DNA of 9,120 nt from Escherichia coli (GTDB lineage Bacteria > Pseudomonadota > Gammaproteobacteria > Enterobacterales > Enterobacteriaceae). The notes beneath the pieces were generated by a model. It saw only the letters and a list, made by a program, of their open reading frames with translations, did not search any database and was not told the origin of the DNA. Where the stretch lies: the NCBI RefSeq assembly GCF_003334335.1, contig NZ_QOWQ01000067.1; one strand, 5' to 3'. Made by a program: the position numbers and the translations under genes. Every line of letters starts with the position of its first letter. Position 1 is the stretch's first letter. Of this stretch, positions 8,886 through 9,120 are shown piece after piece.

Positions 8886-9120
8886 TTTCCTCTCCAGTTC
8901 AGATTGCTGCGATATTAATCTTTCGTTTTGTTTCAGTTGATACTGCGTCATGGTGAGATAAAAATAAAACGAAAGATAATGGTTTTCTGATCTGATTCAC
9001 AAAAGAAACATAATGAAAGTCAGTGAAACGAGAGTAGCTTGCGCCAATGGGCAAGGTGGGCTTGCATTTGCTTAATAGAAAGGCGTTAATAGGCAAAACG
9101 AAATGAAACGAAAGTTTTAC
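8886..9120. promoter_or_regulatory. AT-rich aga-type regulatory region with AgaR-operator-like repeats
   Basis: Several copies of a TTTCGTTT-type motif in both orientations: TTTCGTTTTGTTTC (8921-8934, plus), AAAATAAAACGAAAG (8961-8975), GTGAAACGAGAG (9023-9034), CAAAACGAAATGAAACGAAAG (9094-9114). They fit the recalled AgaR operator consensus WRMMTTTCRTTTYRTTTYNYTTKK and lie immediately upstream of the kbaZ-like start. Confidence 0.45.

Follow-up and report, generated by a model that had tools for sequence, protein, structure and literature searches.

The N-acetylgalactosamine (GalNAc) and galactosamine (GalN) regulon of Escherichia coli is controlled by AgaR, a repressor of the DeoR family. 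According to Hu et al. 2013 (PMC3668189), where Ray & Larson 2004 is cited, AgaR binds to the promoters of agaR, kbaZ (agaZ) and agaS, and GalNAc induces. In addition, kbaZ is among the known CRP targets recovered by genomic SELEX (systematic evolution of ligands by exponential enrichment; PMC3105977). Here, we describe a copy of the divergent agaR-kbaZ control region that occupies positions 8886-9120 of a 9,120-nucleotide stretch of E. coli DNA (assembly GCF_003334335.1, contig NZ_QOWQ01000067.1), the whole of which we refer to as the window. Judged by its sequence, the region is the well-known noncoding segment that holds promoters PR (for agaR) and PZ (for kbaZ), and its operator cluster is one that is already known.

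Our reading of the locus, to which we assign a probability of roughly 0.85, is as follows. Positions 8886-9120 are a PR/PZ region with four to five predicted AgaR operators and a CRP site, this region belongs to a paralogous aga copy on a genomic island, a deletion has removed most of that copy, and PZ would now serve an operon that begins with a malX-like phosphotransferase system (PTS) gene.

The agaR-kbaZ control region and its operators

The minus strand of 8816-9120 is identical at 301 of 305 positions (99%) to the K-12 agaR-kbaZ intergenic region together with nucleotides 1-70 of kbaZ, and the four differences all lie outside the motif cores (TTTCGTTT) of the operator copies. The original prediction, made from the window alone, had recognized an AgaR-type operator cluster in this segment and had proposed, as a check, to look for agaR just beyond position 9120. 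In strain NCTC86, which matches window positions 71-9120 at 99.9% identity, and in the other genomes that match the window at 99.9%, the agaR start codon (approximately 9134, plus strand) indeed lies 14 nucleotides past the end of the window. This agaR is intact, and its product exceeds the cut-off of the NCBIfam AgaR equivalog model (463 bits versus 260). The segment is thus found to be both orthologous to the characterized K-12 region and positioned beside agaR in an aga promoter region.

The AgaR operator consensus reportedly reads WRMMTTTCRTTTYRTTTYNYTTKK. A full-text literature search for this string returned no match, and for that reason we base the identity of the operators on this consensus combined with support obtained de novo. 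The exact motif TTTCRTTT occurs five times in the window, at 8921-8928 on the plus strand and at 8967-8974, 9096-9103, 9101-9108 and 9106-9113 on the minus strand. All five copies thus fall within 8921-9113, and 0.83 would be expected per window from dinucleotide-preserving shuffles. Likewise, the 14-mer TTTCRTTTYRTTTY has seven matches in the window at up to two mismatches versus 1.05 expected, and five of these fall within 8921-9113, four of them perfect and the fifth with one mismatch. The original prediction of at least three or four copies in both orientations is confirmed, with a single copy (8920-8935) on the plus strand and the remaining copies on the minus strand.

The matrix scan that had been suggested as a check was carried out with a weight matrix trained only on agaS-upstream sites of 10 other taxa, DNA that is absent from the window. 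Its five top matches in the window all lie in 8918-9116, with scores of 26.5, 25.1, 22.5, 17.6 and 17.6 bits; the training sites were chosen with the above consensus, so that the matrix is independent of the window in location and not in motif definition. For comparison, the highest score over 200 shuffles was 19.4 bits, and the maxima of the individual shuffles averaged 11.3 bits.

The motif also marks the same promoters elsewhere. The K-12 aga locus (15.5 kb) has 15 motif matches, and all but one of them lie within the two known AgaR-regulated spacers, agaR-kbaZ and agaA'-agaS. In eight loci of approximately 20 kb from seven genera, matches with at most one mismatch are confined to the agaR-kbaZ and agaA-agaS spacers, aside from an AgaR-like match over the rsmI start codon, about 0.9 kb downstream of a gene for a protein resembling glycoside hydrolase family 36 (GH36), in two Enterobacter loci. 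We take the rsmI match to be coincidental. When 13 agaR-kbaZ spacers from eight genera are aligned, the motif copies stand out as conserved, mostly invariant blocks, with a variable, indel-rich stretch between them. A weak element at 9024-9033, TCTCGTTTCA, lacks conservation beyond Escherichia and was not counted as an operator.

These data bear on whether the repeats might be chance T-rich, low-complexity sequence without operator function, a suspicion that the AT-rich spacer and the T-rich, short-period character of the motif itself would invite. None of 200 dinucleotide-preserving shuffles reaches the observed counts, three matrix matches in the control region exceed every shuffle maximum, the copies are invariant across eight genera while the intervening DNA varies, and the same motif marks the agaS promoter. 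We consider the chance explanation vanishingly improbable. A related possibility is that the sites are bound mainly by another DeoR-family regulator, either GatR or the product of an island gene about 3 kb further along (20299-21081 of island locus L001, in which the island agaR occupies 17063-17887). DeoR-family operators are often T-rich repeats, as here. However, the region is 99% identical to one reported to be AgaR-bound in K-12, which has no such island regulator, and in all genera examined the motif accompanies agaR and aga genes, making this alternative very improbable.

The features of the control region are as follows, with bit scores taken from the weight matrix.

8886-8895, minus strand: ribosome-binding site GGAGAGGAAA of kbaZ; invariant in 13 of 13 sequences.
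8920-8935, plus strand: predicted inverted operator CTTTCGTTTTGTTTCA, over the putative PZ start and early transcribed region; no mismatch, 22.5 bits; block TGAAACAAAACGAAAGAT in 11 of 13 sequences.
8937-8945, minus strand: GCAGTAT(C/T)AA block, putative -10 element of the kbaZ promoter PZ; alignment columns G175, C176, A177, A180 and T181 invariant.
8961-8975, minus strand: predicted operator CTTTCGTTTTATTTT, overlapping the putative PZ -35 element; no mismatch, top matrix match at 26.5 bits; block ATCTTTCGTTTTATTTTTA.
8983-9004, minus strand: CRP-like site TTTTGTGAATCAGATCAGAAAA (TGTGA-N6-TCAGA), read from the sequence; TTTTGTGA and GATC invariant.
9005-9019, minus strand: operator-like site CTTTCATTATGTTTC, adjoining the CRP-like site on its upstream side; matches the 14-mer with one mismatch, 17.6 bits; invariant block.
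9062-9090, plus strand: candidate agaR promoter PR, with TTGCAT at 9062-9067, a 17-nucleotide spacer and GTTAAT at 9085-9090; proposed solely from conservation and spacing.
9095-9114, minus strand: predicted tandem operator CTTTCGTTTCATTTCGTTTT of overlapping pentamer repeats; exact motif, 25.1 and 17.6 bits; almost invariant (13 sequences, eight genera) and identical to K-12.

The tandem operator is 20-39 nucleotides upstream of the agaR start codon and would be an autoregulatory operator over the PR transcription start. The PR hexamers fall within the cross-genus invariant blocks GAATGCAAG and TATTAAC (given for the kbaZ-sense strand). A CRP site reads TGTGA-N6-TCACA; the left half of the CRP-like site is invariant across genera, and the site is centered some 61-64 nucleotides upstream of the PZ start, a distance that is an estimate based on a putative start site. 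The position of the candidate PZ -10 element relative to the CRP-like site would fit a class I arrangement. Promoter-like matches on the plus strand at 8937-8965 and 8953-8980 lie more than 150 nucleotides from agaR and outside the conserved hexamer blocks, and they were not adopted.

Two open reading frames (ORFs) overlap these features, and the original prediction had set them aside as operator DNA. They could instead be taken to encode small proteins: either a 65-residue product of 8899-9096 or a KbaZ' extended at its N terminus from 8951. The ORFs do exist, and the ATG at 8951 shares the reading frame of the kbaZ GTG. The K-12 annotation, however, places the kbaZ start at the GTG corresponding to 8885, which is the one used, and the conserved ribosome-binding site at 8886-8895 immediately precedes this GTG; the ATG is not the true start. 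In addition, the conservation across the region is block-like, with indels and no codon pattern, the indel-rich variable segment falls inside the 65-residue ORF, and nothing is annotated at this place in K-12. We therefore agree that the region is noncoding and judge the small-protein explanation to be extremely improbable.

The deletion junction and the operon downstream

Downstream of PZ, the aga genes of this copy are cut short. The features of this part of the window are as follows.

8547-8885, minus strand: in-frame fusion ORF of 112 amino acids with a GTG start; KbaZ residues 1 to about 23, the junction, then the last 86 or so residues of a KbaY-like class II aldolase.
8798-8859, no strand assigned: perfect palindrome with 24-nucleotide arms and a 14-nucleotide loop, at the deletion junction.
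8434-8546, minus strand: spacer from the kbaY-like stop to the malX-like start; free of AgaR motifs and, on this strand, of terminator-like sites; stem-loop at 8462-8493.
3771-8433, minus strand: downstream operon, delineated with NCBIfam models, frameshift comparison, a structure model and aga synteny.
8433-6861, minus strand: malX-like PTS IIBC gene; passes the malX PTS IIBC models and is frameshifted in the window.
6852-5674, minus strand: gene for a MalY/PatB-like pyridoxal phosphate (PLP)-dependent C-S lyase; PatB family by NCBIfam.
5684-3771, minus strand: gene for a 629-residue secreted, predicted GH36-like alpha-galactos(amin)idase, labeled 'enterotoxin'; assigned by profile and structure model.

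In NCBIfam comparisons, the fusion ORF matches positions 1-27 of the KbaZ model and positions 197-284 of the 286-position KbaY model. Its kbaZ part is 99% identical to K-12; for its kbaY part, identity is 77% with E. coli and 85-86% with Enterobacter. What is missing from the island copy thus runs from about nucleotide 70 of kbaZ to about codon 197 of kbaY. A deletion has removed kbaZ, agaVWEFA, the promoter PS, agaS and most of kbaY, joining kbaZ at about codon 24 in frame to the kbaY-like gene. The 12-mer CCGCTGGTGCTG is found about 14 nucleotides past the break in native kbaZ and just before the retained part in Enterobacter kbaY. Being common to both genes, it points to a microhomology-mediated deletion.

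In the junction palindrome, native kbaZ sequence forms the left arm; the right arm, an exact reverse complement of the left (kbaZ nucleotides 27-50, approximately), stands in place of the expected CCGCACATCCGCTGGTGCTGC. The resulting hairpin is very stable. Template-switch correction of a quasi-palindrome yields a perfect palindrome, and the junction suggests a microhomology deletion followed by such template-switch perfection of a quasi-palindrome, with the frame preserved. An Rfam scan of 8300-9120 found no known RNA family, returning only sub-threshold look-alikes of microRNA precursors that are caused by the junction palindrome.

The original prediction had spoken of a regulated promoter retained despite loss of the catabolic genes. 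For the island copy this holds: no functional kbaZ-agaVWEFA operon lies downstream of the island PZ, where only about 70 nucleotides of kbaZ remain. For the genome it does not, as the complete operon is present elsewhere. The native cluster of NCTC86 (garD-prlF-yhaV-agaR-kbaZ-agaVWEFA-agaS-kbaY-agaBCDI, 3.617-3.629 Mb) is complete.

We examined the surroundings of the malX-like gene by scanning one genome per species with the MalX-like protein, which gave 28 loci. In 22 of these, there is an aga cluster whose kbaY is immediately followed by the malX-like and malY-like genes. Taxa with this order include Enterobacter, Kluyvera, Citrobacter sp. R56, Yokenella, Morganella, cryptic Escherichia and Aeromonas, and the gene for the 629-residue protein follows as well in several Enterobacter loci, Yokenella, one further Enterobacteriaceae genus and Aeromonas sobria. 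Thus, the PTS operon is not a chance neighbor of the aga promoter region, because the trio directly follows kbaY in many aga clusters, and for the same reason the deletion appears to have swapped the AgaR-controlled promoter PS for PZ. Since no locus scanned has an AgaR motif between kbaY and malX, AgaR control in the donor would come from PS. Among loci L008 to L034 (for example L008, 7411-13053), the pair stands after kbaY in at least seven genera, often with the GH36-like gene next. The malX-like and malY-like genes either replace agaBCDI or precede agaB and agaC, the latter in cryptic Escherichia (L022) and in L013.

The stem-loop at 8462-8493 lies just upstream of the malX-like ribosome-binding site and is conserved in Enterobacter, Citrobacter, Kluyvera, Yokenella and cryptic Escherichia. 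Nine of its ten predicted pairs are kept after changes on both sides in at least one sequence; it has no U-tract and no Rfam match. A TATAAG-like block in the same spacer is partly conserved.

Within the malX-like gene, the window has a run of nine T residues at 8418-8426 (A9 in the sense strand, codons 3-6), whereas NCTC86 has T8/A8, and the reading frame of the window shifts after seven codons. This is either real pseudogenization or a sequencing error in the homopolymer. Translation could resume at an ATG at 8366 to give a 501-residue malX-like product. A gene named 'malX' is used as a pathogenicity island marker in the typing of extraintestinal pathogenic E. coli and has been reported in strains of sequence type 131 (ST131). 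We considered whether this marker might be the malX-like gene of the island; no ST131 strain is among the island-bearing records listed.

The 629-residue protein is labeled 'enterotoxin' or 'alpha-galactosidase', depending on the record. Searched as a single sequence, it gave no match in Pfam, NCBIfam or PDB sequence searches. It has a signal peptide and belongs to a family of 1673 representatives. A profile built from 60 homologues matches structures of GH36 alpha-galactosidases (3mi6, E 6e-9), and the Melibiase model PF02065 matches 5 of the 60 family members. The AlphaFold (AF2) model of the protein has a predicted local distance difference test score (pLDDT) of 92.8, and its top Foldseek match is 9awt (E 5e-26), the blood-group-A alpha-galactosaminidase of Flavonifractor plautii. 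The next matches are GH36 alpha-galactosidases, with template modeling (TM) scores of 0.46-0.61 and 11-14% identity. By fold and by family-level similarity, the protein is thus GH36-like (clan GH-D) and a predicted glycosidase, and the 'enterotoxin' label appears to be a misannotation. A secreted protein that is predicted to be an alpha-galactos(amin)idase fits a GalNAc/GalN cluster.

The island and its chimeric aga copy

In NCTC86, the window lies within an island that begins with an integrase, is located next to clpA and harbors remnants of iro and afa. Judging by the order of genes in K-12, its insertion site is presumably the tRNA gene serW. Every one of the island-bearing records listed has two places for the query.

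The aga copy on this island is a chimera. A patch of 1125 bp (nucleotides 1-70 of kbaZ, the spacer, and agaR to its stop) is 98.7% identical to native E. coli, with the agaR-PZ part at 98.4-98.8%, and 77-82% identical to Enterobacter. Its flanks (the kbaY fragment and the malX-like, malY-like and 629-residue protein genes) are 84-87% identical to Enterobacter and either at most 77% identical to E. coli or without a match there. Fragments of rsmI (window 3443-3701; 85% to E. coli, 88.6% to Kluyvera) and of garD (L001 17950-19104; 88.5% to E. coli) bracket the module, indicating that the island holds a captured garD'...rsmI' chromosomal segment from an enterobacterium other than E. coli, together with an agaR-PZ patch of E. 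coli type. In the island AgaR, there is one substitution (I111L), and replacement of the stop codon adds LASSL to the C terminus; native E. coli homology ends exactly at this point.

We found the deletion junction in 312 of 5426 complete E. coli genomes (about 6%), and all 312 genomes that hold the foreign kbaY fragment at 80% coverage or more have it. The agaR-kbaZ spacer itself was found at 5828 places in 5322 records, such that some 500 complete E. coli genomes appear to have more than one copy.

Three further observations concern the window strain and the databases. Positions 1-70 of the window do not align with NCTC86 or with most other island-bearing genomes. A single record (strain 300444) covers 1-9120, in three pieces and with an insertion sequence (IS) element interrupting, which suggests a rearrangement or an IS junction at the left edge. 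An A at position 2871 (G in NCTC86) creates a stop that shortens a hypothetical protein from 478 to 338 amino acids (ORF 1855-2871), a possible second gene inactivation in this strain. Finally, a 5.3-kb contig binned as 'MAG: Collinsella sp.' (JAIJJM010000184.1, L007) encodes the kbaY fragment and the MalX-like, MalY-like and 629-residue proteins at 100% amino acid identity; it is almost certainly a binning contaminant.

Proposed regulation and comparison with known systems

From the geometry of the sites and the published K-12 work, we propose that AgaR oligomers would bind to the tandem site over the PR start and thereby autoregulate agaR. AgaR would also occupy the three sites that flank the CRP site, the PZ -35 element and the PZ start, blocking PZ next to the place of CRP activation. 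Growth on or metabolism of GalNAc or GalN would relieve AgaR binding, such that both PR and PZ are derepressed. PZ would then read through the 112-residue KbaZ'-'KbaY fusion ORF into the malX-like, malY-like and GH36-like genes. PZ is the only AgaR-controlled promoter that is left upstream of the island operon, it lies on the same strand, and a terminator scan of the minus strand from 8885 to 8433 found no terminator-like site. AgaR control of the malX-like operon in the island copy, as the original prediction had envisaged, is plausible on these sequence grounds. Control of the malX-like, malY-like and GH36-like genes by AgaR was probably ancestral, exerted through PS, and we infer that it is kept here through PZ.

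A different arrangement would leave the operators real and restrict their role to autoregulation of the island agaR and titration of AgaR, with PZ a relic and the malX-like operon transcribed from a promoter of its own in the spacer. Consistent with this, a block (AAAAAATAACTATAAGCCTCGCAAATA) upstream of the malX-like gene is conserved in Enterobacter, Citrobacter, Yokenella and two further Enterobacteriaceae genera and is followed by the covarying stem-loop. The lack of an AgaR motif in the kbaY-malX spacer and the malX-like frameshift in the window point the same way. On the other hand, a promoter scan of the spacer found no -35/-10 pair, and the TATAAG block is absent from Kluyvera, Morganella and the cryptic Escherichia locus, all of which keep this gene order. 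Co-regulation with aga is favored by the close and conserved position of the operon behind kbaY in at least seven genera, where it lacks a dedicated regulator gene. We regard this arrangement as a possible but doubtful one.

Several points weigh against our main reading. Both AgaR binding and expression are predictions for this copy, and the transcription starts of PR and PZ are placed from the sequence. A consensus promoter scan did not flag PR or PZ, both of which fall below its threshold. Transcription or translation could be hindered by the 31-bp hairpin into which the junction palindrome folds, and the conserved TATAAG-like element and stem-loop in the 113-nucleotide spacer may reflect an AgaR-independent promoter or separate processing of the operon. 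The malX-like frameshift may mean that the wiring is decaying in this strain, or the extra base may stem from a homopolymer sequencing error. The substitution and five-residue extension of the island AgaR might also affect its function.

As a tentative extension, and one we would hold rather doubtful, the malX-like PTS, the MalY/PatB-like lyase and the secreted GH36-like enzyme could together form an undescribed, AgaR-controlled accessory GalNAc/GalN branch in Enterobacterales. In such a branch, the periplasmic enzyme would free an alpha-linked GalNAc or GalN fragment from host glycans (mucin O-glycans, blood-group A type), the PTS would import the freed fragment, and the lyase would process it. 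E. coli would have gained only the island branch, with AgaR control kept by the promoter-swapping deletion, and would rely on its native aga genes for what follows. Were this so, it would offer an initial physiological hint as to why malX and malY are paired, which has long been unexplained. The conserved trio at the ends of aga clusters suggests that alpha-linked GalNAc/GalN may be harvested from host glycans by a route that is unstudied. Likewise, where a second agaR and operator set is present, as in some 6% of complete E. coli genomes, the native GalNAc/GalN regulon could experience a different repressor dosage and a different degree of operator titration. In the literature searched, we found nothing on the island duplicate, on the promoter-swapping deletion or on a malX-like/malY-like/GH36-like extension of aga clusters.

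Set beside the K-12 agaR-kbaZ region, the window copy has the motif copies, CRP-like site, ribosome-binding site and GTG start unchanged and agaR divergently adjacent. It differs in being a second copy, on an island near clpA (in NCTC86) and not at the 3.28-Mb locus of K-12, and in that its kbaZ ends after about 70 nucleotides and is joined to a foreign kbaY 3' end. Moreover, the genes that follow are malX-like, malY-like and GH36-like, whereas those in K-12 are agaVWEFA, and the island AgaR has I111L and five extra C-terminal residues.

General knowledge of other DeoR-family repressors with repeated operators, such as GlpR and DeoR, offers a second comparison. As in those systems, several operators are spread over about 200 bp on both sides of promoters, at spacings of about 40-95 bp that would be compatible with cooperative binding or looping. 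In contrast to them, the operator motif here is specific to AgaR.

The promoter PS, which serves agaS-kbaY-agaBCDI, has the same operator motif, including one inverted copy, and in other genera it is the AgaR-controlled promoter upstream of the kbaY-malX-like-malY-like genes; from the island copy it has been deleted. The malX-malY pair of K-12, which is repressed by MalI, likewise combines a PTS IIBC with a PatB/MalY-type PLP-dependent C-S lyase. The island proteins, however, are only 53% (MalX) and 30% (MalY) identical to those of K-12, and their genes lack a malI-like regulator and are linked to aga genes and a secreted GH36-like enzyme. The aga clusters of Enterobacter, Kluyvera, Citrobacter, Yokenella and Morganella share with the island copy the gene order, the orientation and the spacer stem-loop, and their malX-like proteins are 88-96% identical to that of the island. 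Those clusters are complete, whereas the island copy has the deletion and an E. coli-type agaR-PZ part.

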